Shown here in pieces: positions 1-35,749 of a stretch of DNA of 35,749 bases. The stretch is taken from IMG/VR virus record IMGVR_UViG_2541047865_000003. The stretch is one strand, 5' to 3'. Both the position numbers and the translations under genes were made by a program. The notes under the pieces were generated by a model. It had not been told where the DNA came from. It did no database searches and was given only the letters and a program-made list of their open reading frames with translations. Positions within the stretch are counted from its first letter, which is position 1, and each line of letters begins with the position of its first letter. The DNA comes from a virus (Duplodnaviria; Heunggongvirae; Uroviricota; Caudoviricetes).

Positions 1-1602
1 ATGTATAGAACTCACCGACAACACAGCCTGTTAAGCTCTGGTGGAGTGCCATCGTTTATTGGTGGGCTGGTGGTGTTTGTGTCGGCAGCGTTCAATGCAC
101 AAGCTGAAACCTGGTTCGATCCTGCCTTTTTCAAAGATGATCCCTCAATGGTGGCCGATTTGTCTCGTTTCGAAAAAGGACAAAAAATAACGCCAGGGGT
201 TTATCGTGTCGATATTGTTCTGAATCAGACAATTGTAGATACGCGCAACGTCAATTTTGTTGAGTTAACGCCAGAGAAGGGGATTGCCGCCTGTTTGACG
301 ACTGAAAGCCTGGATGCAATGGGTGTGAATACTGATGCGTTTCCGGCTTTTAAACAACTGGACAAACAAGCGTGTGCGCTATTGGCGGAGATTATTCCGG
401 ATGCCAGCGTAACTTTTAATGTGAATAAACTCCGTCTGGAAATTTCAGTACCGCAAATTGCTATAAAAAGTAACGCTCGTGGTTATGTCCCCCCTGAACG
501 TTGGGATGAAGGGATCAACGCGCTATTACTGGGATATTCATTTAGCGGGGCTAACAGTATTCATAGCAGCGCAGACAGTGATTCTGGCGACAGTTATTTT
601 CTGAATTTAAACAGTGGCGTTAATTTAGGCCCATGGAGATTGCGCAACAATTCAACATGGAGTCGTAGTAGTGGCCAAACCGCAGAATGGAAGAATCTCA
701 GCAGCTATTTGCAACGGGCGGTTATTCCTCTGAAAGGCGAACTGACCGTAGGTGATGATTATACTGCAGGCGATTTTTTCGATAGTGTCAGCTTTCGTGG
801 TGTGCAGCTGGCGTCAGATGACAACATGCTGCCAGACAGCCTGAAAGGGTTTGCGCCTGTGGTGCGTGGTATCGCCAAAAGCAATGCCCAGATAACGATT
901 AAGCAAAATGGTTACACCATTTACCAAACTTATGTATCGCCTGGTGCTTTTGAAATTAGTGATCTCTATTCCACGTCGTCGAGCGGTGATTTGTTAGTTG
1001 AAATCAAAGAAGCGGACGGCAGCGTCAATAGCTACAGCGTACCGTTTTCCAGCGTGCCATTACTCCAGCGTCAGGGGCGAATCAAATACGCGGTGACACT
1101 GGCGAAATACAGAACCAATAGTAATGAACAGCAGGAGAGCAAATTTGCCCAGGCCACGTTGCAGTGGGGCGGACCGTGGGGAACGACATGGTATGGTGGT
1201 GGACAATATGCTGAATATTACCGTGCCGCCATGTTTGGTCTGGGATTTAACCTTGGCGATTTCGGAGCAATTTCGTTCGATGCGACCCAGGCGAAGAGTA
1301 CGCTGGCAGACCAAAGCGAACATAAAGGTCAGTCATATCGTTTTCTGTATGCCAAAACGCTCAACCAATTGGGCACTAATTTTCAATTGATGGGCTATCG
1401 CTATTCGACGTCGGGTTTCTACACCCTTTCCGACACCATGTATAAACATATGGATGGCTACGAATTTAATGACGGTGATGATGAAGATACGCCGATGTGG
1501 TCGCGTTATTACAATTTGTTTTACACCAAACGTGGCAAACTGCAGGTCAATATCTCCCAGCAATTAGGCGAGTACGGTTCGTTTTATTTAAGTGGTAGCT
1601 GA
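1..1602 (+). CDS. Fimbrial outer-membrane usher protein (FimD/PapC family), 5' fragment; reading frame ends at the prophage junction
   Basis: 533-aa ORF with a signal-peptide-like N-terminus (…AAFNAQA) and FimD-like motifs (ADLSRFEKGQ, PGVYRVDI, RGYVPPERWDEGINA, LASDDNMLPDSLKGFAPV, GQSYRFLY, YRYSTSGFY, FYLSGS). Ushers are ~850 aa; here the frame stops at TGA 1600-1602, where Mu-end-like sequence begins. True start may lie upstream of the window. Confidence 0.8.
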   Translation: MYRTHRQHSLLSSGGVPSFIGGLVVFVSAAFNAQAETWFDPAFFKDDPSMVADLSRFEKGQKITPGVYRVDIVLNQTIVDTRNVNFVELTPEKGIAACLTTESLDAMGVNTDAFPAFKQLDKQACALLAEIIPDASVTFNVNKLRLEISVPQIAIKSNARGYVPPERWDEGINALLLGYSFSGANSIHSSADSDSGDSYFLNLNSGVNLGPWRLRNNSTWSRSSGQTAEWKNLSSYLQRAVIPLKGELTVGDDYTAGDFFDSVSFRGVQLASDDNMLPDSLKGFAPVVRGIAKSNAQITIKQNGYTIYQTYVSPGAFEISDLYSTSSSGDLLVEIKEADGSVNSYSVPFSSVPLLQRQGRIKYAVTLAKYRTNSNEQQESKFAQATLQWGGPWGTTWYGGGQYAEYYRAAMFGLGFNLGDFGAISFDATQAKSTLADQSEHKGQSYRFLYAKTLNQLGTNFQLMGYRYSTSGFYTLSDTMYKHMDGYEFNDGDDEDTPMWSRYYNLFYTKRGKLQVNISQQLGEYGSFYLSGS

Positions 1603-1677
1603 TGCGCCGCGCGATAAATGCGCCCATTTCCGTGAGATAAATGGCACCGCTGCGGCGTTTCAATATTTGAAAAAGAA
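1603..1677. repeat. Prophage terminal region with two direct repeats of a GATAAATG-containing motif (candidate transposase-binding sites)
   Basis: Begins 5'-TGATGCGCCGCGCGATAAATGCG, resembling the Mu right-end R1 consensus (TGAAGCGGCGCACGAAAAACGCG, recalled from memory). GATAAATG occurs at ~1613-1620 and ~1636-1643, about 23 bp apart; Mu end sites are ~22 bp units. Confidence 0.45.
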
Positions 1678-2259
1678 TTACAATCCTACCGCGTCATCCT
1701 TCCTCTGACTATCTACCGGAAAATACCGGTAGAGCGTCGATAACCCCACCCCGTAGATAATGGCCAGTTGCTGGCGGGTATGCCCCTTAGCCAATAGCCG
1801 CCCAATCTGTTCTCGCTCATGAGGCTTTAATGCGTTGGGCCTTCCACCTATGCGTCCCTGTGCTCTGGCTGCTGCTAACCCGGCCAATGTTCGTTCGACG
1901 ATCAACTCACGTTCCATTTCCGCCAGTGCCGACATCACATGGAAAAAGAAACGCCCCATGGCAGTGCTGGTATCAATACTGTCTGTTAAAGAGCGGAAGT
2001 GGGCACCGCGTTCATGTAACTCTGATATCAGTGCGATCAGGTTCTTAACGCTGCGCCCCAGCCTGTCCAGTTTCCACACGACCAGGGTGTCTCCGCTATT
2101 AACGCACTTTAAAGCGCGTTTCAGACCGGGGCGGCTGGCAACTTTTCCGCTCATACGGTCTTCAAAAATGCGGTCACAGTTTGCGCTTATGAGTGCATTA
2201 CGCTGTAAATCGCTGTTCTGGTCGATTGTTGATACGCGGATATAACCAATGACGGCCAT
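1678..2259 (-). CDS. gin: Serine-recombinase DNA invertase (Gin/Hin/Cin/Pin family)
   Basis: 193-aa product from MAVIGYIRVSTIDQNSDLQRNAL…, closely matching the Gin/Hin N-terminus (catalytic Ser in VST, C-terminal HTH …STLYRYF). ATG at 2257-2259 preceded by a GGAGGAG RBS. The track ORF 1678..2421 is an upstream in-frame extension. Confidence 0.85.
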   Translation of the reverse strand: MAVIGYIRVSTIDQNSDLQRNALISANCDRIFEDRMSGKVASRPGLKRALKCVNSGDTLVVWKLDRLGRSVKNLIALISELHERGAHFRSLTDSIDTSTAMGRFFFHVMSALAEMERELIVERTLAGLAAARAQGRIGGRPNALKPHEREQIGRLLAKGHTRQQLAIIYGVGLSTLYRYFPVDSQRKDDAVGL

Positions 2260-2321: not shown

Positions 2322-2347
2322 TTTCCAAAAACCTTGGTTTGGGAGAA
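2322..2347. repeat. gix/hix-like recombination crossover site (copy next to gin)
   Basis: 26-bp site TTTCCAAAAACC-TT-GGTTTGGGAGAA, resembling the Hin hix consensus TTCTTGAAAACC-AA-GGTTTTTGATAA. Inverted relative to the 4154-4179 copy, sharing a ~21-bp identical core. Confidence 0.75.
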
Positions 2348-2800
2348 GGTTCGGCATTACCCGTTGGTGTGCCTGTCCCGTGGCCTTCCGCCACTCCGCC
2401 AACAGGCTGGCTAAAATGCAATGGTGCGGCTTTTTCTGCTGAAGAATACCCGGAACTGGCAAAGGTTTATCCGACAAATAAATTGCCTGATTTACGCGGT
2501 GAATTTATTCGTGGCTGGGATGACGGACGTGGAGTGGATGCCGGGCGACAATTATTATCTTCACAGGGGGATGCAATAAGAAATATTGAGGGATTCGCAG
2601 ATGGCGGGATCGGTATGTCTTTTGATGCAATCAGAGGGGCTTTTTACGATGCAGGAACACGATCAGCGAGAATGCCGAATAACACAACTACTATAGACAA
2701 AACCGATGACCTTGGATTCGACGCCTCTCGTGTCGTGCCAACAGCTAATGAAAACCGTCCACGTAACATCGCCTTTAATTATATTGTGAGGGCTGCATAA
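2348..2800 (+). CDS. Alternative tail-fibre C-terminal variable segment (Sv'), no own start; would fuse to the constant S N-terminus after inversion
   Basis: Frame open through the crossover site, encoding the same NLGLGE junction as the S gene, then a receptor-binding-like region (PVGVPVPWPSATPPTGWLKCNGAAFSAEEYPELAKVYP). Stop at 2798-2800 overlaps the start of the downstream assembly gene. Confidence 0.65.
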   Translation, partial: GSALPVGVPVPWPSATPPTGWLKCNGAAFSAEEYPELAKVYPTNKLPDLRGEFIRGWDDGRGVDAGRQLLSSQGDAIRNIEGFADGGIGMSFDAIRGAFYDAGTRSARMPNNTTTIDKTDDLGFDASRVVPTANENRPRNIAFNYIVRAA

Positions 2801-3393
2801 TGAAACCTGTTTTTGATGAAAATGGGCTGGCTACAGTGCCGGGTGATATGCGTTGTTTTTATTATGATGCAGTAACGTCTGAATATACGGGCTGGTCTGA
2901 TGAATATATTAATACTGGCGTAAGTATGCCCGCCTGTTCCACTGGTATTGACCCGGGCGAATACATTCCGGGGAAAGTGGCAGTATTTACGGGTAAGGGA
3001 TGGAGCCATGAAGAAGACCACCGCAATGAGACTGTTTACTCAATCGAAAATGGCGCAGCTGTTACAGTGGATTATATCGGTGCCATCAAAGACGGTTATG
3101 TCACGCTTTCACCGTTAACGCCATACGATAAATGGGATGGTGAGAAATGGGTGACAGATACTGAGGCACAGCATAGTGCCGCACTAGACGCGGCAGAAGC
3201 ACAGCGCCAGTCGCTGATTGATGCTGCAATGGCTTCCATCAGTCTGATTCAACTGAAATTACAGGCCGGGCGGAAGCTGACGCAGGCAGAAACAACCCGA
3301 CTTAACGCCGTGCTGGATTATATTGACGCGGTGACGGTAACAGATACCAGCACTGCGCCGGATGTCATCTGGCCTGAACTGCCGGAGGCGTAG
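2800..3393 (+). CDS. Tail-fibre assembly protein (U'-like, alternative orientation)
   Basis: 197 aa with the conserved C-terminal assembly-chaperone motif (…DTSTAPDVIWPELPEA). TAATG overlap with Sv'. Confidence 0.75.
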   Translation: MKPVFDENGLATVPGDMRCFYYDAVTSEYTGWSDEYINTGVSMPACSTGIDPGEYIPGKVAVFTGKGWSHEEDHRNETVYSIENGAAVTVDYIGAIKDGYVTLSPLTPYDKWDGEKWVTDTEAQHSAALDAAEAQRQSLIDAAMASISLIQLKLQAGRKLTQAETTRLNAVLDYIDAVTVTDTSTAPDVIWPELPEA

Positions 3394-3805
3394 GCCATTC
3401 AATATCTGGCGCACCGGAAGTATCGACCAGTTCCAGTGTGTCCAGATAATCCAGCCACAAATTATATTGCGCCAGTTCCTCACCTTTCAGGCGACCAATC
3501 GCCGCTTTACCAGGCCATTGCTTACTGTTTATGTATTCGTTGACCTGATTAATCAATTGCTGCTTTTCCAGTTCGGCTGCGGCAATTTGTTCCTCATGAG
3601 TTGGCGGTGGAATATCAATCCATGCAGGCATTCCGTCGATGACACCTCTGTATTTTCCTTCTGGTGCTTCCTTCATAAATTCGGCGGCAACAGTGTCGTC
3701 AATTTCGATTCCATCATCGGGCCATTCGCCGGATTCCTGATAAGCGATTTTAAGCTCCACAGGGAAAAACGCATTTTTATCGGCACTGAAAATATATTTC
3801 TGCAT
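3365..3805 (-). CDS. Tail-fibre assembly protein (U-like, currently expressed orientation)
   Basis: 146 aa, C-terminus …DTSGAPDIEWPTPP. Immediately follows the S gene; 3' end converges on and overlaps the U' 3' end. Confidence 0.75.
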   Translation of the reverse strand: MQKYIFSADKNAFFPVELKIAYQESGEWPDDGIEIDDTVAAEFMKEAPEGKYRGVIDGMPAWIDIPPPTHEEQIAAAELEKQQLINQVNEYINSKQWPGKAAIGRLKGEELAQYNLWLDYLDTLELVDTSGAPDIEWPTPPAVQAR

Positions 3806-3807
3806 TT

Positions 3808-4653
3808 CTACCGTCCTATCGAAATATAACTGAATCTGTATTGCTGTGAGATATCACTGGTTGCCACACGCCACGCTGAATTACTGATATGTTCAAAATT
3901 TACAGACAAAACCTGCGGGGCAGGATTCGACGGGTCTGACTGAACGGCATCAGACATAACACTGACTGAAACCATCGGCTGATTAGGGAATGGTATAGGG
4001 AAGTGTCCACTGATAAAGCGGGTCGTGTTTCCTGAAAAAGTGCCAAACTGAACAATATATCCACCTGGTAGCCTGAACCATCCCGAACCAGAAGCGAATG
4101 CTCCCATATCCGGTATCTGATTATCTCCTGTGCCCACATCCCTTTTCGCCGCTTCTCCCAAACCAAGGTTTTGAAGAAAGGCTGCCTTATCGGGAATATC
4201 CGCACCGTTCTGGTCTTTGGCCAGTTTCTCCGCCAGCTTGTTCAGCACTGTGGTCGCAAAGTTCGGATCGTTGCCAAGGGCATCAGCCAGCTCTTTCAGC
4301 GTATCCAGTGTTTCTGGGGCTGTACCTGCAAGCGCAGCAATCGCCCTCGCCACAAATTCTGTCGTCACCAGCTTTTTGCTGTTGTCATTAGCTGCAGGCG
4401 TGGGGGCTGTTGGCGTACCCGTGAATGTTGGGCTGGCCTTCGTCGCATACTGGGTATGCGGGTCGGCCGCTGCGATGTGTTTCGCGAGATCTGAACCGCC
4501 TTTTTCAACCTGCTGTTTCAGGTATGAAGTACGGCTGGCCAGCTGTTTAGCCTGACGGTTAGAAATTCCATCAGGCCCACCCAGTACGGGGTCGGAGACC
4601 TCAATCTGGTAGATGCCGTCTTCCCACTGCGGGGTTTCGGGTAGATTTGCCAT
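3808..4653 (-). CDS. Tail-fibre protein (constant N-terminal part 4180..4653 plus variable part inside the invertible segment)
   Basis: 281 aa with a typical tail-fibre N-terminus (MANLPETPQWEDGIYQIE…) and the hix-encoded NLGLGE junction. Crossover site lies inside the coding sequence at 4154-4179. Confidence 0.85.
   Translation of the reverse strand: MANLPETPQWEDGIYQIEVSDPVLGGPDGISNRQAKQLASRTSYLKQQVEKGGSDLAKHIAAADPHTQYATKASPTFTGTPTAPTPAANDNSKKLVTTEFVARAIAALAGTAPETLDTLKELADALGNDPNFATTVLNKLAEKLAKDQNGADIPDKAAFLQNLGLGEAAKRDVGTGDNQIPDMGAFASGSGWFRLPGGYIVQFGTFSGNTTRFISGHFPIPFPNQPMVSVSVMSDAVQSDPSNPAPQVLSVNFEHISNSAWRVATSDISQQYRFSYISIGR
4154..4179. repeat. gix/hix-like recombination crossover site (copy inside the tail-fibre gene)
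   Basis: TTCTCCCAAACC-AA-GGTTTTGAAGAA. Inverted partner of 2322-2347. Confidence 0.75.
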
Positions 4654-26027: not shown

Positions 26028-26798
26028 ATGAAAGAACAATCTTTACCCATCGTCCCATGGATTGGCGGTAAACGTCGTCTGGCGAAGCATATTTTACCAT
26101 TGTTTCCGGCCCATACCTGCTATGTGGAGCCGTTCTGCGGGGCAGCTGCGCTCTATTTCCTAAAGACTCCCAGCAAGACCGAAGTCATTAACGATATCAA
26201 CGGGGAACTGGTGAACCTCTATCGGGTGGTCAAGCATCATCTGGAAGAATTTATTCGCCAGTTCAAATGGGCGCTGGTCAGCCGTCAGATTTACAAATGG
26301 TTGCAGGATACGCCGGAAGAAACGCTCACCGACATTCAGCGGGCGGCCCGGTTCTACTACCTGCAGAAACAGGCATTTGGCGGCAAGGTCGCCGATCACA
26401 CATTCGGTACCTCTACAACCAGTGCGCCGCGCTTCAATTTGCTGCGTATTGAGGAAGAACTGTCGATGGCACACCTGCGCCTGTCGAGAACGCTGATAGA
26501 GCATCTGGACTGGCACCAGTGCATAGAGCGATATGATCGCCCGCATACGCTGTTCTACTGTGACCCACCGTACTGGGGAACGGAAGGCTATGGTGTGGAG
26601 TTCGGGCTGGAAAACTATGATCACATGGCAGATTTAGCGCGAAGGATCAAAGGGAAGATGATTATATCAGTGAACGATATCCCGGAAATGCGGCAGGTAT
26701 TCAACGGTCTGAACATGCAGTCGGTTGATATCAGCTACAACCTTAAGGTAACAGGCAAACCCAGCCCGAAGAAAGAGCTGGTAATTTGTAATTTTTGA
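26028..26798 (+). CDS. DNA adenine methyltransferase (Dam-like, N6-adenine)
   Basis: SAM-binding motif (FCGAAALYF) and catalytic DPPY motif. Start chosen at MKEQSLPIVPWIGGK…; the track ORF begins 24 nt upstream. Confidence 0.75.
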   Translation: MKEQSLPIVPWIGGKRRLAKHILPLFPAHTCYVEPFCGAAALYFLKTPSKTEVINDINGELVNLYRVVKHHLEEFIRQFKWALVSRQIYKWLQDTPEETLTDIQRAARFYYLQKQAFGGKVADHTFGTSTTSAPRFNLLRIEEELSMAHLRLSRTLIEHLDWHQCIERYDRPHTLFYCDPPYWGTEGYGVEFGLENYDHMADLARRIKGKMIISVNDIPEMRQVFNGLNMQSVDISYNLKVTGKPSPKKELVICNF

Positions 26799-27414: not shown

Positions 27415-27825
27415 TTAACCCGTATTTTTTAATCTTTCGAACGCTGCGGACAGCTCCTTAAGCTGTTTTTCCATATCAATCATTCGCTGTTTTTCCTCAG
27501 CGCCTCGCAGCAACTCTTTTCGCACCTCTGGCTCCAGTTGGTTGAGCAGCTCCAATAACTTCAGATCAGACTGGTTGAAATGCTGCTCCTGATTAGCTGG
27601 CTGTGCTTTCTCTACCCCAACAGCTTCCCCTTTACCAGTAAGTAGCCAATCTATTGATATGTTCAAATGGGTGCTTAGCGCAACAAGAGCCTCTGCATTA
27701 GGTTCTCTCTCTCCACGCAGATAGTTTTGAAGTGAGCGATATGGAATTTTTGACAAGTCTGACAATGCCTTAATTGTCAGACCCTTAGCATCCATCGCTT
27801 CGCGCAATCTCTCTTTTATACTCAT
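27415..27825 (-). CDS. Prophage repressor (XRE-family HTH)
   Basis: Start at MSIKERLREAMDAKGLTIKALSDLSKIPYRSLQNYLRGER… (HTH), C-terminal coiled-coil-like region. Divergent from the early operon across an ~88-bp promoter/operator region. Confidence 0.7.
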   Translation of the reverse strand: MSIKERLREAMDAKGLTIKALSDLSKIPYRSLQNYLRGEREPNAEALVALSTHLNISIDWLLTGKGEAVGVEKAQPANQEQHFNQSDLKLLELLNQLEPEVRKELLRGAEEKQRMIDMEKQLKELSAAFERLKNTG

Positions 27826-29361: not shown

Positions 29362-31131
29362 ATGAGTGCCGCCCTGACTGAACGACTGGTTTATGTTGCC
29401 CGCGCGGCACGTGACGCGGGGCATGGTAAGCGTGGTGCGATATATGATGCCGCCTGCGCCGAACTGGGCATTTCCCGCGCCACCCTGCTGCGCAAGCTGA
29501 AGGAGGTATCAGTGACTGACAAACGTAAAAAACGCGCCGATGCCGGGCGCAGTGCCCTGAGCCGCGACGAAGCCGCGCTGATATCTGCCACGCTGCGCGA
29601 GGCCACCCGTAAGAACGGTAAGCGCCTGTATTCCATCGCGGATGCGGTGGAGACCCTGCGGTCAAACGGCTTTATCACTGCTGGCAGAACGGACGAGGCC
29701 ACAGGCGAGTTTTTCCCGCTGTCCGAGGACACCATCAGCCGCGCCCTGCGGAACTATGGTCTGCACCCGGAACAGCTTGACGCACCGGCCCCGTCGTCCG
29801 AGATGGCCAGCCTGCATCCCAATCACGTCTGGGAGATTGATGCCTCACTTTGTACGCTTTACTACCTGAGCAACGGCCATAAAGGGTTGCAGGTGATGGA
29901 CAGCTCGAAGTTCTACAAGAACAAGCCTGCCAACATCGCCCGCATCGCCAGTGACCGCGTGTGGAGTTACGAGATTACCGACCATACCAGCGGCTGGATT
30001 TACGTTGAGTACGTGATGGGTGCGGAATCTGGTGAGAACCTCTGTTCTGTGCTTATCAACGCCATGCAGGAGCGCGGCGGCGCGGACGTGCTGCACGGCG
30101 TGCCGAAAATACTCTACCTTGATCCCGGTTCGGCGAACACCGCTGGCATGACGAAAAACATGTGCCGCTCGCTGGGCATCAATCTGATAGCGCACAAGCC
30201 GCATAACGCCCGCGCCACCGGGCAGGTGGAAAAGGCCCGTGACATTATCGAACGTAAACTGGAGCCGGGTCTCAAATTCCAGCCGGTTCATAGCCTGGAC
30301 GAACTGAACGCGCTGGCGGTGAAATGGCGCAGCCACTTTAACGCCACGGCGGTCCACAGCCGCCACGGTAAAACCCGCACGGATATCTGGCTGAAGATTA
30401 CTGCTGACCAGCTGAAAAAAGCGCCATCCGTTGAGGTTTGCCGCGAACTGGCGGTGGCCGCACCGGAACTCCGTAAGGTCACACCAAAACTGCGCGTCTC
30501 GTTCCGGGGCAATGAGTTTGACGTTTCGACGGTACCGGGCGTACTGGTCGGCGAAAAACTGATGATTACCCGTAACCCGTGGCGCAGCGATGTGGCGCAG
30601 GTGGTGCTGACCGGTGAGGACGGTCACGAGACGTTCTTCCTGGTCGAAGAGGTCAGAAAGAACGAGTTCGGCTTTGCCGAAAGCGCGGCGGTATTTGGCG
30701 AAAACTACAAAGCCCTGCCGGAGACCCCGGCGCAGACGGCGGCAAAAGAAATCGAAGAGCTGGTTACGGGCACCGATAACGCCACCGATGCAGCTGCTGC
30801 ACGCAAGGCGAAGGCGCTGCCGTTCGGCGGGCGACTTGACCCGTACAAACATATCGACGACACCACGCTTCCGGCCTATATGCCGAAGCGCGGTCAGGCT
30901 TCAGACGTGCGCGGGCCGCGTATTGAGCAGCGTCCGCTGACCCATGTGGAGGCGGCGAAAGCCCTGCGCGAGAAGTTTGGCGCTAACGGCCATATCTGGA
31001 CGCCGGAACATTACCGCCAGTTAACGGCGCAGTACCCGGATGGCGTACCTGAAGCCGCGCTGGATGAGGTGATGGTTACCCTGACCACTCCGGCCCGCAA
31101 CAGCGTTATCAGCATCGTTAACGGTAACTGA
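29362..31131 (+). CDS. DDE transposase (Mu A-like)
   Basis: 589 aa with an N-terminal DNA-binding region and candidate DDE residues (WEIDAS, LYLDPGS, HNARATGQVEKAR); followed by the AAA+ ATPase partner; RBS GGAGG. Confidence 0.8.
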   Translation: MSAALTERLVYVARAARDAGHGKRGAIYDAACAELGISRATLLRKLKEVSVTDKRKKRADAGRSALSRDEAALISATLREATRKNGKRLYSIADAVETLRSNGFITAGRTDEATGEFFPLSEDTISRALRNYGLHPEQLDAPAPSSEMASLHPNHVWEIDASLCTLYYLSNGHKGLQVMDSSKFYKNKPANIARIASDRVWSYEITDHTSGWIYVEYVMGAESGENLCSVLINAMQERGGADVLHGVPKILYLDPGSANTAGMTKNMCRSLGINLIAHKPHNARATGQVEKARDIIERKLEPGLKFQPVHSLDELNALAVKWRSHFNATAVHSRHGKTRTDIWLKITADQLKKAPSVEVCRELAVAAPELRKVTPKLRVSFRGNEFDVSTVPGVLVGEKLMITRNPWRSDVAQVVLTGEDGHETFFLVEEVRKNEFGFAESAAVFGENYKALPETPAQTAAKEIEELVTGTDNATDAAAARKAKALPFGGRLDPYKHIDDTTLPAYMPKRGQASDVRGPRIEQRPLTHVEAAKALREKFGANGHIWTPEHYRQLTAQYPDGVPEAALDEVMVTLTTPARNSVISIVNGN

Positions 31132-31141
31132 GGAGGAAGGC

Positions 31142-32308
31142 ATGCTGGTACTGAAGCAACAACTGAAAGAGGCCCGCATCCCGCAGGCGGTGGTGGCAAG
31201 AGCCGTCGCCGTTTCCGAGGCCACGCTGGCCCAGATTGTGAACCATAACGAGTGGCCACGCACCAGCCCCGAAGAGGTACGCCAGCGTCTGGCGTTGTAT
31301 CTGGAAAGTAAGGGGATTGATACAGCGAAAAGTTTTGATGCTGCACAGGGCGCTGTCACGCCCCGTACAGCGGGTACTACCGATAAAACCAACCTCAGTG
31401 AGGAAGAGAACATGTTACTCAAAAAGCAGGTGTTATTTCCAGCAACCAAAAAAGCGTTTGGCCTTTTCCGTGATCCGTTCGCCGATGAAGCCATGCAGGG
31501 CGCGGACGATGTGTTCACCACGCCGGATATCCGCTACGTGCGTGAGGCGCTGTTCCAGACCGCCCGCCATGGTGGCTTTCTGGCGGTTATCGGCGAGTCC
31601 GGTGCGGGTAAATCCACGCTGCGCCGCGACCTGATTGAACGCGTCAACCGCGAGAACGCGCCGGTGATTGTAATTGAGCCATACATCATCGCCATGGAAG
31701 ACAACGACGTGAAGGGCAAAACCCTGAAGGCGGCAGCTATCGCCGAGGCCATCATCAGCACCATCGCGCCGCTGGAGAGTATCAAACGCAGCCAGGACGC
31801 CCGCTTCCGCCAGTTGCACCGCGTCCTGAAGGACAGCAGTCAGGCGGGTTTCAGCCACGTTCTGGTGATTGAGGAGGCCCACAGCCTTCCCATTCCGACG
31901 CTGAAGCACCTTAAACGCTTCTTCGAACTGGAGTCCGGCTTCAAAAAACTGCTGTCCATCGTGCTGATTGGCCAGCCTGAACTGGCGGACAAACTGTCCG
32001 AACGCAACATGGAAGTCCGTGAGGTCGTCCAGCGCTGCGAGGTGGTTGAATTGCTGCCGCTGGACAACAGCCTCGAAGAGTTTCTGACGTTCAAACTGCA
32101 ACGTGCCGGTAAGCAGCTGGCCGACATCATGGACGCCAGCGCAGTGGAAGCCATCCGCGCCCGTCTGAGCAATCTGGGTAGTAGCCGTAAAAGCATGGTC
32201 AGCCTGCTGTATCCGCTGGCCGTCAGTAACCTGGTGATAGCCGCCATGAATCTGGCTGCTGAAATCGGGGTTCCGCAGGTCAACGCCGACGTCGTCAAAG
32301 GAGTTTAA
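31142..32308 (+). CDS. Transposition ATPase / target-DNA activator (Mu B-like AAA+)
   Basis: Walker A GESGAGKST, Walker B VLVIEEAH, N-terminal HTH-like region; immediately downstream of the transposase. Confidence 0.8.
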   Translation: MLVLKQQLKEARIPQAVVARAVAVSEATLAQIVNHNEWPRTSPEEVRQRLALYLESKGIDTAKSFDAAQGAVTPRTAGTTDKTNLSEEENMLLKKQVLFPATKKAFGLFRDPFADEAMQGADDVFTTPDIRYVREALFQTARHGGFLAVIGESGAGKSTLRRDLIERVNRENAPVIVIEPYIIAMEDNDVKGKTLKAAAIAEAIISTIAPLESIKRSQDARFRQLHRVLKDSSQAGFSHVLVIEEAHSLPIPTLKHLKRFFELESGFKKLLSIVLIGQPELADKLSERNMEVREVVQRCEVVELLPLDNSLEEFLTFKLQRAGKQLADIMDASAVEAIRARLSNLGSSRKSMVSLLYPLAVSNLVIAAMNLAAEIGVPQVNADVVKGV

Positions 32309-32310
32309 TC

Positions 32311-32580
32311 ATGAAATCCATCGCCGATATCAACCAGCAGATGAACAAGGTGCAGTCCGCCATTATGGCGCTCAACGCCATGAACACTACCGTGCAGAGC
32401 GTCATGATTGCTGGCAGTAAGCCGGTTATCCGTATCGCCCGCAACGGGCACTGTGCCCGCCTGCTGGAGCAGGGCAAAGCGAGTTATACCCATGTTGGCC
32501 ATGACGGCTCAGGGCGCTTCCGTCAGGGCGTCTTTGAGTTGCATGGCTGCCGTATTACCTGGTCAGAGTCGTTACATTAA
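32311..32580 (+). CDS. Hypothetical early protein (89 aa)
   Basis: AGGAG RBS; starts 3 nt after the B stop; several His/Cys residues. Confidence 0.45.
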   Translation: MKSIADINQQMNKVQSAIMALNAMNTTVQSVMIAGSKPVIRIARNGHCARLLEQGKASYTHVGHDGSGRFRQGVFELHGCRITWSESLH

Positions 32581-33287: not shown

Positions 33288-33476
33288 ATGTCCATCAAAT
33301 GTATCAACTGCCAGAAAGGTATCACCACCCTGAAGTTCAGCGACGCCAGCGTCATTTCCTCCGGTAAGTACCGCGTACCAGCCGTCCTCATCACGCTGGT
33401 ATGCCCACACTGTAGCCAGCATTACTACACCGAAGTCCCGGCCATGGAATTCATCCCTTGTGAGGCAAAGAAATGA
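33288..33476 (+). CDS. Com-like zinc-ribbon protein (62 aa)
   Basis: Two Cys pairs (CINC…CPHC). Pattern and length resemble Mu Com as recalled from memory (MKSIRCKNC…CPRCKRH). AAGGAA RBS; 3' end overlaps the next gene (ATGA). Confidence 0.5.
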   Translation: MSIKCINCQKGITTLKFSDASVISSGKYRVPAVLITLVCPHCSQHYYTEVPAMEFIPCEAKK

Positions 33477-33745
33477 TTACTGCAAAAGAAGCCGAAAAAC
33501 GGACCCGTGAAATTGTCGCGGAATATATCAGTGAATGTGGTTGTGAAAATCCCAACCATATCCGGCAGGTATTAATCAAATTAATCAGCATGGCTTCACA
33601 CGCCATCGTAGCAACAAATGGCCTAGATCAGGCTATTTACGTTCTTCACGCCACCAGTGACCACCTGAGAAAAATGCCGCCGCTGTACGAGCTGGAAATT
33701 ACTGAGGACGGCCACGTGAAAGTTATCGGCGTATCACGCCATTGA
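33473..33745 (+). CDS. Hypothetical protein (90 aa), translationally coupled to the Com-like gene
   Basis: ATGA overlap with the Com-like ORF; no recognisable motif. Confidence 0.45.
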   Translation: MITAKEAEKRTREIVAEYISECGCENPNHIRQVLIKLISMASHAIVATNGLDQAIYVLHATSDHLRKMPPLYELEITEDGHVKVIGVSRH

Positions 33746-34945: not shown

Positions 34946-35363
34946 GCAGCGTCTTATTCAACTCATTCATATTGCCCGCAGCGACCTCCAGATGGATGAG
35001 GACACCTACCGCCAGATGCTACAGGGGCTGACCGGCAAAGCCTCAACCAAAGGGATGGATACCCCACAGCTAAACCGCGTGCTGGAATCAATGAAAAAGA
35101 AAGGCTTTCGCATTAAGCCTGCCGGGAAAGCCAAGTCCGGCTTACCGCTCGACAGCCATCCGCAGTCAAAGAAAATCCGTGCGCTATGGCTTGAAATGGC
35201 TGCCGCAGGCATCGTCCGTGACAGTTCAGAGCAGGCGCTGGCGCTGTGGGTTAAACGGGAAACCGGCATCAGCGCGTTACGCTGGCTCAGCAATGAGCAG
35301 GCAAGTAGCGTGATTGAGAAACTGAAGAAGTGGCAGCGCAGAGCTGCGGGAGTGAAGCAATGA
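34935..35363 (+). CDS. GemA-like regulatory protein (Mu gp16 family)
   Basis: Start MMTKQRLIQLIHIARSDLQMDEDTYRQML…, preceded by an AAAGGAG RBS; located immediately before the Mor-like gene as in Mu. Confidence 0.55.
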   Translation: MMTKQRLIQLIHIARSDLQMDEDTYRQMLQGLTGKASTKGMDTPQLNRVLESMKKKGFRIKPAGKAKSGLPLDSHPQSKKIRALWLEMAAAGIVRDSSEQALALWVKRETGISALRWLSNEQASSVIEKLKKWQRRAAGVKQ

Positions 35364-35749
35364 GCGACCTGAATCAGTTTCGTAGTAAAGGGCCGGAACT
35401 GTTGGTGGAACTGGCACAGCATACCTCTGAGACTGTCCGCGAGATTATTGATATCGAACCCGCAGTTGCCGACCAGATTGGTCAGGCCGTCGCGAACCGC
35501 ATGATGCAGGTCTGGGGTGGGCAAAACGTCTATTTTCCGATGGGCATGGTCTGGAAGGTCAGCCAGCGCGACCGGGAAATTTTCCTGGAGTTTGACGGGC
35601 GCAACCATCACGAACTGGCCCGCAAATTTGGTGTTTCACTACAGTGGGTTTACAGCGTGGTGAAGCGGGTCAGAAAAGAAGAACTGGATCGGATGCAGGG
35701 CAAACTGTTTGATGGCGAACCTGATGCCGATACAGGGAAAAAGGAGTAA
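35360..35749 (+). CDS. Mor/C-family transcription activator (middle operon regulator-like)
   Basis: 129 aa from MSDLNQFRSKG…; C-terminal HTH (HELARKFGVSLQWVYSVVKRVRK) and central GGQNVYFP motif parallel Mu Mor (GGGQVYIP … NTVYKAIRR, from memory); ATGA overlap with the GemA-like stop. Confidence 0.65.
   Translation: MSDLNQFRSKGPELLVELAQHTSETVREIIDIEPAVADQIGQAVANRMMQVWGGQNVYFPMGMVWKVSQRDREIFLEFDGRNHHELARKFGVSLQWVYSVVKRVRKEELDRMQGKLFDGEPDADTGKKE

Follow-up and report, generated by a model that had tools for sequence, protein, structure and literature searches.

Transposable prophages related to BcepMu (Bcepmuvirus) have TG...CA termini and encode Tn552-related rve transposases (PMC2628397). At its right end, BcepMu has one long tail-fibre gene and a gene for an acyltransferase (gp53). 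In phage Mu (NC_000929), the early and late genes run in the same direction, the target is duplicated over 5 bp, and an interval of about 1 kb between gin and attR contains com and mom. Here, we analyzed a stretch of DNA of 35,749 nucleotides (IMG/VR virus record IMGVR_UViG_2541047865_000003, referred to as the window in its whole length), in which the 5' part of the fimbrial usher gene elfC (ycbS) is followed directly by a prophage. The prophage is very probably a BcepMu-type transposable myophage that was inserted by DDE transposition between codons 533 and 534 of elfC in E. coli UMEA 3052-1.

The window starts with an usher open reading frame (positions 1 to 1602, plus strand) that has 533 codons and a product ending in GEYGSFYLSGS. 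The original prediction, which had the frame stopping at 1600-1602 just after the FYLSGS motif, was thus confirmed on this point. A megablast search with positions 1 to 2400 against 5426 complete E. coli genomes matched elfC in 4097 of them; every elfC match listed ended at query base 1599, and no genome in this set spans the elfC/phage junction. The elfC fragment at 1 to 1599 (plus strand, codons 1-533 of 866), assigned by megablast, domain content and the length of intact alleles, is 100% identical to elfC in 13 complete genomes. Strains A29 and OkiPb01676 have an intact elfC with an identical 5' part that encodes 866 amino acids. The comparison with uninterrupted alleles that had been proposed at the outset could therefore be carried out, and identity to the intact alleles ends at base 1599. 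The intact gene reads ...AAGTGGTAGC|CAGCAAACT and the window reads ...AAGTGGTAGC|TGATGCGCC; across position 1599/1600, A29 and OkiPb01676 have ...AAGTGGTAGC|CAGCAAACTTAC where the window has ...AAGTGGTAGC|TGATGCGCCGCG. Since the gene is cut after codon 533 of 866, it is 333 codons short, in line with the earlier estimate of roughly 300. Direct reading and the comparison with the intact alleles indicated that the TGA stop of the truncated frame (1600 to 1602, plus strand) consists of the first three bases of the prophage. Therefore, the 533-amino acid end is not native to the usher.

The effect of the truncation on the protein can be appreciated from its domains. A domain search found PapC_N and Usher in the 533-amino acid product and no PapC_C, which was seen only in 3' elfC fragments of other genomes. 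Full ElfC aligns with FimD over its whole length (E=1e-259), and in this alignment the FimD barrel-plus-plug construct 3OHN maps to ElfC residues 159-695. The complete usher architecture comprises an N-terminal domain, a 24-strand barrel with a plug and two C-terminal domains, and the product of the window gene does not contain all of them. Compared with the ElfC/YcbS usher of the ELF (Ycb) fimbriae, residues 1-533 are identical, but the distal barrel and PapC_C are absent. Judging from usher architecture, a stub that has lost some 160 residues of the barrel together with the two C-terminal domains could not be a working usher. The 875-kb scaffold KE701470.1 (GCA_000460035.1, E. coli UMEA 3052-1) is identical to the window over the 11,602 bases compared and is very probably its source; the truncated usher protein of this strain is EQW36290.1.

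From position 1600 onward the window reads TGATGCGCC..., the gin-proximal end of a transposable prophage. When positions 1600 to 1760 were used as query, 23 records (22 complete E. coli genomes) matched from query base 1, which is window position 1600. The host genes adjoining the prophage ends in these records vary and include csgC, a carbamate kinase gene, rlmC, napB, gadC and hybA. Because the homology in all 23 records starts at 1600 beside such varied host genes, this position is the true phage terminus. The initial identification of Mu-end-like sequence at the usher stop was then correct as to the terminus, but not as to the kind of element, which is of the BcepMu type rather than Mu proper.

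Four relatives could be read at both ends. In all of them the phage runs TGATGCG...TCTAATCA, with TG...CA termini, and is bordered by perfect 6-bp duplications: ATTGTC in HH107 (insertion in csgC), TTCACC in GON1437 (in the carbamate kinase gene), CTATGG in 21KM1392 (in rlmC) and TCATGA in CFSAN051542 (beside napB). The base that precedes TGATG in these insertions is C, C, G and A, respectively, and since it varies it must be outside the phage. A 5-bp duplication next to a phage starting with CTG seemed possible after two insertions and was ruled out by the G or A found before TGATG in the other two. We had expected a 5-bp duplication around 1596-1600, and this expectation has to be abandoned in favor of 6 bp, the size found in four out of four relatives. 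The BcepMu-type family to which the window phage belongs thus makes 6-bp duplications, and the copy predicted for the window from the four relatives is GGTAGC (1594 to 1599, Gly532-Ser533). The insertion sites seen amount to about 28 different flanks, and the window's own copy was seen on one side only.

The gin-proximal (late, or right) terminus, at 1600 to 1677, starts with 5'-TG and contains two putative transposase-binding repeats of the GATAAATG type at 1610-1620 and 1633-1643. Two repeats of this type are present at each phage end, at offsets 14 and 37 from the tip, as determined for the other end from the record of Escherichia phage Phi06_2974 B (KM389306/KM389307). The first 23 nucleotides of the terminus resemble the right ends of Mu and BcepMu; in the comparison with Mu (TGAAGCGGCGCACGAAAAACGCG versus TGATGCGCCGCGCGATAAATGCG), 18 of 23 positions match by hand count. 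Both phage termini begin with TGA when read inward (TGATGCG and TGATTAG). Therefore, a gene interrupted in the matching frame ends at once without a fusion tail, as is the case in the window.

The prophage occupies positions 1600 to 35749 and continues for about 161 bp past the window; it was annotated on the minus strand, with the late genes on this strand and the early genes on the plus strand from about 27914. The early genes diverge from a gene for a CI-type repressor of 136 amino acids (27415 to 27825, minus strand; HTH_3 and Phage_CI_repr domains). Their order on the plus strand is two HTH proteins of 74 and 101 amino acids, DUF3102, transposase, AAA+ ATPase, DUF3164, DUF2786, GemA and Mor. 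The transposase is a DDE (rve) protein of 589 amino acids (29362 to 31131, plus strand) with 68% identity to BcepMu gp09 over 581 amino acids and a weak rve match. In a sequence search at E<=0.01, neither MuA nor any other PDB chain matched it. Next to it is the gene for an AAA+ transposition ATPase of the ExeA/AAA_22 type (31142 to 32308, plus strand; 388 amino acids, AAA_22 E=3e-20), which shares 60% identity with BcepMu gp08 (E=4e-168). Closest to the early-side phage end is the gene for a Mor-family transcription activator (35360 to 35749, plus strand; PF08765). On the minus strand the order is holin, SLT endolysin, terminase, Mu-type portal, F and G head genes and P2-type tail.

This gene order is colinear with that of BcepMu (NC_005882), in which Mor, GemA, DUF3164, ATPase, transposase and DUF3102 are likewise located on one side of the repressor and holin, SLT, terminase, Mu-type portal and head and P2-type tail on the other; the TG...CA ends of both phages also have a similar terminal sequence. 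The gp09-like transposase, the gp08-like ATPase, the TG...CA termini, the insertion at many sites with short duplications and the divergent operons with a Mu-type head and a P2-type tail are, taken from sequence comparison, the traits by which the window phage is of the BcepMu type and not Mu proper. The likeness to Mu includes the transposable lifestyle, a Gin that is 71% identical, the invertible fibre segment, Mor, GemA, the Mu-type portal and the F and G head genes. Among the hallmarks of Mu proper, the Gin invertase with an invertible tail-fibre segment is present, but the 5-bp duplication, com-mom between gin and attR and a MuA-type transposase are not. The two phages further differ in that duplications are 5 bp in Mu and 6 bp in the family of the window phage, and in that the early and late genes are divergent in the latter. 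The window phage differs from BcepMu as well: the end where BcepMu has its single fibre gene is occupied by a Mu-like invertible fibre cassette and Gin, and a Dam methylase gene is found beside the immunity region.

These comparisons suggest how the arrangement could have originated. The phage would combine a Mu-like head and replication strategy with a P2-like tail and a Mu-like Gin/G-segment. The 589-amino acid rve transposase, together with its 388-amino acid AAA+ partner, would attach the phage by its 3'-CA ends to a target cut with a stagger of 6 bp, and repair of this cut would duplicate GGTAGC. The insertion leaves a 533-amino acid ElfC stub closed by the terminal TGA of the phage. The 34-kb insert would also part elfG-ycbUVF from the elfA promoter, and the ELF (Ycb) fimbrial operon would be knocked out. 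We infer from homology that the window phage uses this transposition chemistry, and fimbrial function is probably lost in the lysogen.

As an event, this is a routine insertional knockout of an often-decayed fimbrial gene by a common, already deposited phage type. The annotation of E. coli UMEA 3052-1 should give elfC as a pseudogene that a transposable prophage has disrupted, with the label BcepMu-type, not Mu, for the prophage. Knowledge of the exact termini (TGATGCG...TCTAATCA) and of the 6-bp duplication will help to delimit a very common enterobacterial prophage automatically. ELF fimbriae have been linked to adhesion, and the lysogen is expected to be without them, although in E. coli an inactive elfC is frequent in any case.

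The far end of the prophage was approached through its relatives. The last base of the window is the end of the mor stop codon, and in Phi06_2974 B and HH107 the phage end is found 161 bp beyond this stop, at ...CATTTATCTCAAGTCTAATCA; the prophage should therefore have about 34,311 bp. The far junction, outside the window, is predicted to read ...TCTAATCA|GGTAGCCAGCAA.... In KE701470.1, where window base 1 is 211,762, the phage should end at 247,671, with the reading ...CATTTATCTCAAGTCTAATCA|GGTAGCCAGCAAACTTACTGG.... The predicted far side is then ...CATTTATCTCAAGTCTAATCA GGTAGC CAGCAAACTTACTGGCAT..., followed by elfC codons 534-866 and by elfG. Each of the four relatives read at both ends proved to be a simple insertion, which makes the same likely for the strain of the window. 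An exact look-up for the open reading frames predicted after the junction showed that the 289-amino acid and 260-amino acid forms both occur in the contig collection. The 260-amino acid C-terminal ElfC frame is present on 540 contigs. A protein search for the ElfC C-terminal fragment as the usher remainder of the far side returned only cluster representatives, and the two that were followed turned out to be frameshift alleles.

Some points weigh against the insertion and fimbrial knockout as proposed. The second junction and the usher remainder predicted beyond it are outside the window. The predicted junction strings were absent from genome_contigs, viral_contigs and metagenome_contigs, all three of which were searched. 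In addition, elf is reportedly poorly expressed in laboratory conditions, so that the phenotypic cost of the elfC insertion may be nil.

The alternative that survives best accepts the left junction as real and holds that the insertion was not simple. Recombination between prophage copies, or an inversion or deletion caused by replicative transposition, would have displaced or removed the 3' part of elfC, and the far end would be at another locus. Transposable phages can cause such rearrangements, as is established for Mu, and the far junction falls outside the window. Nonetheless, the perfect 6-bp duplications of the four simple insertions argue against this alternative, and so does the existence on one Logan contig of the 289-amino acid frame predicted just downstream of the junction, a frame that a frameshift allele could also yield. 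We regard a displaced or lost 3' part as having only a slim chance of being correct. A junction created during assembly or scaffolding, by joining an elfC contig to a prophage contig, is less probable still. The window does come from a draft scaffold, and other draft contigs break at the same position. However, the Logan assembly of SRR958552 is identical to the window across the junction and up to base 2348, and the break coincides with the canonical TG terminus of the prophages in 22 other genomes, a precision not expected of a random chimera. That the usher naturally has about 533 amino acids, or that the gene was dead before the arrival of the phage, is equally improbable: elfC is frameshifted after residue 561 in 08-00022, whose 5' 1599 bp match the window exactly, and in two Logan contigs, and it contains an IS1 in strain TOE3, but the alleles of A29 and OkiPb01676 with the identical 5' part are intact at 866 amino acids, contrary to the usher of about 530 that would have spoken for this view, and the stop after residue 533 is phage DNA. 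Simple insertion of the prophage into elfC is the preferred interpretation. Independently of this question, damage to elfC and its operon is frequent in E. coli, as illustrated by the three frameshifted alleles and the IS1 of TOE3; strain A29 also has an IS30 beside a truncated fimbrial gene on the elfA side.

The sites used by the phage family were also compared for a possible target preference. An independent insertion near fliH (OZ039639.1) has GGTAGC after the mor end, and another one in CP027109.1 has CGTAGC at the same place; in both cases the flank after the mor end was the only one read, and the duplication is deduced from it. Over 28 sites, position 3 of the inferred 6-bp duplication is A or T in 23 cases and position 6 is C in 13, a composition that amounts to a weak target preference. 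A second set of observations came from another elfC lineage, distinguished by four synonymous differences (GCA_026218875.1 and GCA_032310475.1), in which draft contigs with the same 533-amino acid product end at base 1600 or 1599. One of these two contigs ends in C, the base of the intact gene at position 1600. There are partial ushers that begin at residue 532, 533 or 534, and the 333-amino acid form has an accession from the protein series that includes the TPA copies of the 533-amino acid fragment. Pairs of 533-amino acid and 333-amino acid TPA entries were considered as products of the same insertion and rejected, given the other allele lineage and the contig ending in the intact-gene C. 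The contig ends at 1599/1600 in that lineage could reflect an assembly that broke there by chance or a second, independent insertion at this site. Altogether, it is doubtful that GGTAGC in elfC is a preferred rather than a random target of this phage family. If it were, the family would have a usable target-site preference and would repeatedly knock out the ELF fimbrial operon.

The region next to the right terminus was characterized as well. The last gene is gin, which encodes a serine DNA invertase of 193 amino acids (1678 to 2259, minus strand; Resolvase E=2.6e-46 and HTH_7) with the 71% identity to Mu Gin mentioned above (tblastn E=2e-83). Its stop codon is separated from the phage terminus by 78 bp, an interval that contains the two putative transposase-binding repeats. 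The window phage has neither com nor mom there, unlike Mu. A tblastn search found no homologue of Mu Mom or Mu Com in the window (best E = 0.24 and 0.54, respectively), which agrees with the original prediction that these genes do not lie between gin and the end. Beyond gin there is an invertible tail-fibre segment analogous to the G-segment (2328 to 4172), delimited by perfect 21-nucleotide inverted repeats at 2328-2348 and 4152-4172 that are 1.8 kb apart. Two alternative sets of fibre C-termini and assembly chaperones are encoded in this segment at 2309 to 2800 and 2800 to 3393 on the plus strand and at 3365 to 3805 and 3808 to 4653 on the minus strand, with Collar, Caudo_TAP and Gp53-like_C domains. 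In Phi06_2974 B (segment at KM389307 752-2558), the 870 bp of the segment that align have the opposite orientation and only 94% identity. The SRR958552 Logan contig ends exactly at 2348, the inner edge of the 21-nucleotide inverted repeat, as if both orientations of the segment had existed in the sequenced culture.

A Dam-like methyltransferase had been proposed to be encoded elsewhere in the element, and a D12-class N6-adenine DNA methyltransferase gene was indeed found at 26028 to 26798 (plus strand; PF02086 E=1.1e-27, 97.9 bits against a cut-off of 22). A Com-like gene had been proposed too, and this assignment did not hold. Its probable source is an open reading frame for a 62-amino acid Cys4 zinc-ribbon-like protein (33288 to 33476, plus strand) that is not assignable to Com: it had no PF10122 match, its zinc-ribbon matches were sub-threshold only, and the comparison with Mu Com by tblastn gave E=0.77 (E=0.5-0.8 over the Mu Com comparisons). 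A frame of 89 amino acids (32311 to 32580) scored 11.9 bits against PF10122 (Zn_ribbon_Com), below the cut-off of 22.9.

The closest relative is Phi06_2974 B, an unverified and unannotated GenBank record that differs from the window by one mismatch in 28,323 bp (KM389306) and two in 3,066 bp. By sequence, the window phage is essentially the same phage, and the insertion sites or flanks differ. A literature search found no paper mentioning Phi06_2974. Host-like sequence flanks both ends of the record (KM389306 and KM389307), with TC| at one and |CATGCCCTGACG... at the other, and the two flanks do not make up a 6-bp duplication. For an unverified record this is suggestive only, but it fits virions that package DNA from many transposition sites, as in replicative transposition with headful packaging. 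The HH107 prophage is 98.7% identical over 33 kb, and Klebsiella phage KP12 (OM835952) is 93.8% identical over 92% of the query. The phage is very common: in the contig collection, 5,689 indexed blocks contain its Mor protein. The transposase and a 177-amino acid protein are common there too, and none of the proteins encoded in the last 10 kb of the window is a rare allele. A related prophage with carbamate kinase gene flanks is present in NZ_CP132021.1, a 40,540-bp record of E. coli JCH8249, and the chromosome record of this strain shows this phage end too, at most about 740 bp away from the record's own end; the separate 40.5-kb replicon record is probably an assembly artefact. The cargo of the relatives varies at fixed slots, with a Gp27-family gene between mor and the phage end in some and a DUF2441 gene beside dam in some; in one relative the early operon includes a gene for a dATP/dGTP pyrophosphohydrolase. 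The window copy is without the Gp27-family, DUF2441 and pyrophosphohydrolase genes and carries an open reading frame of 90 amino acids (33473 to 33745) that is missing in others.

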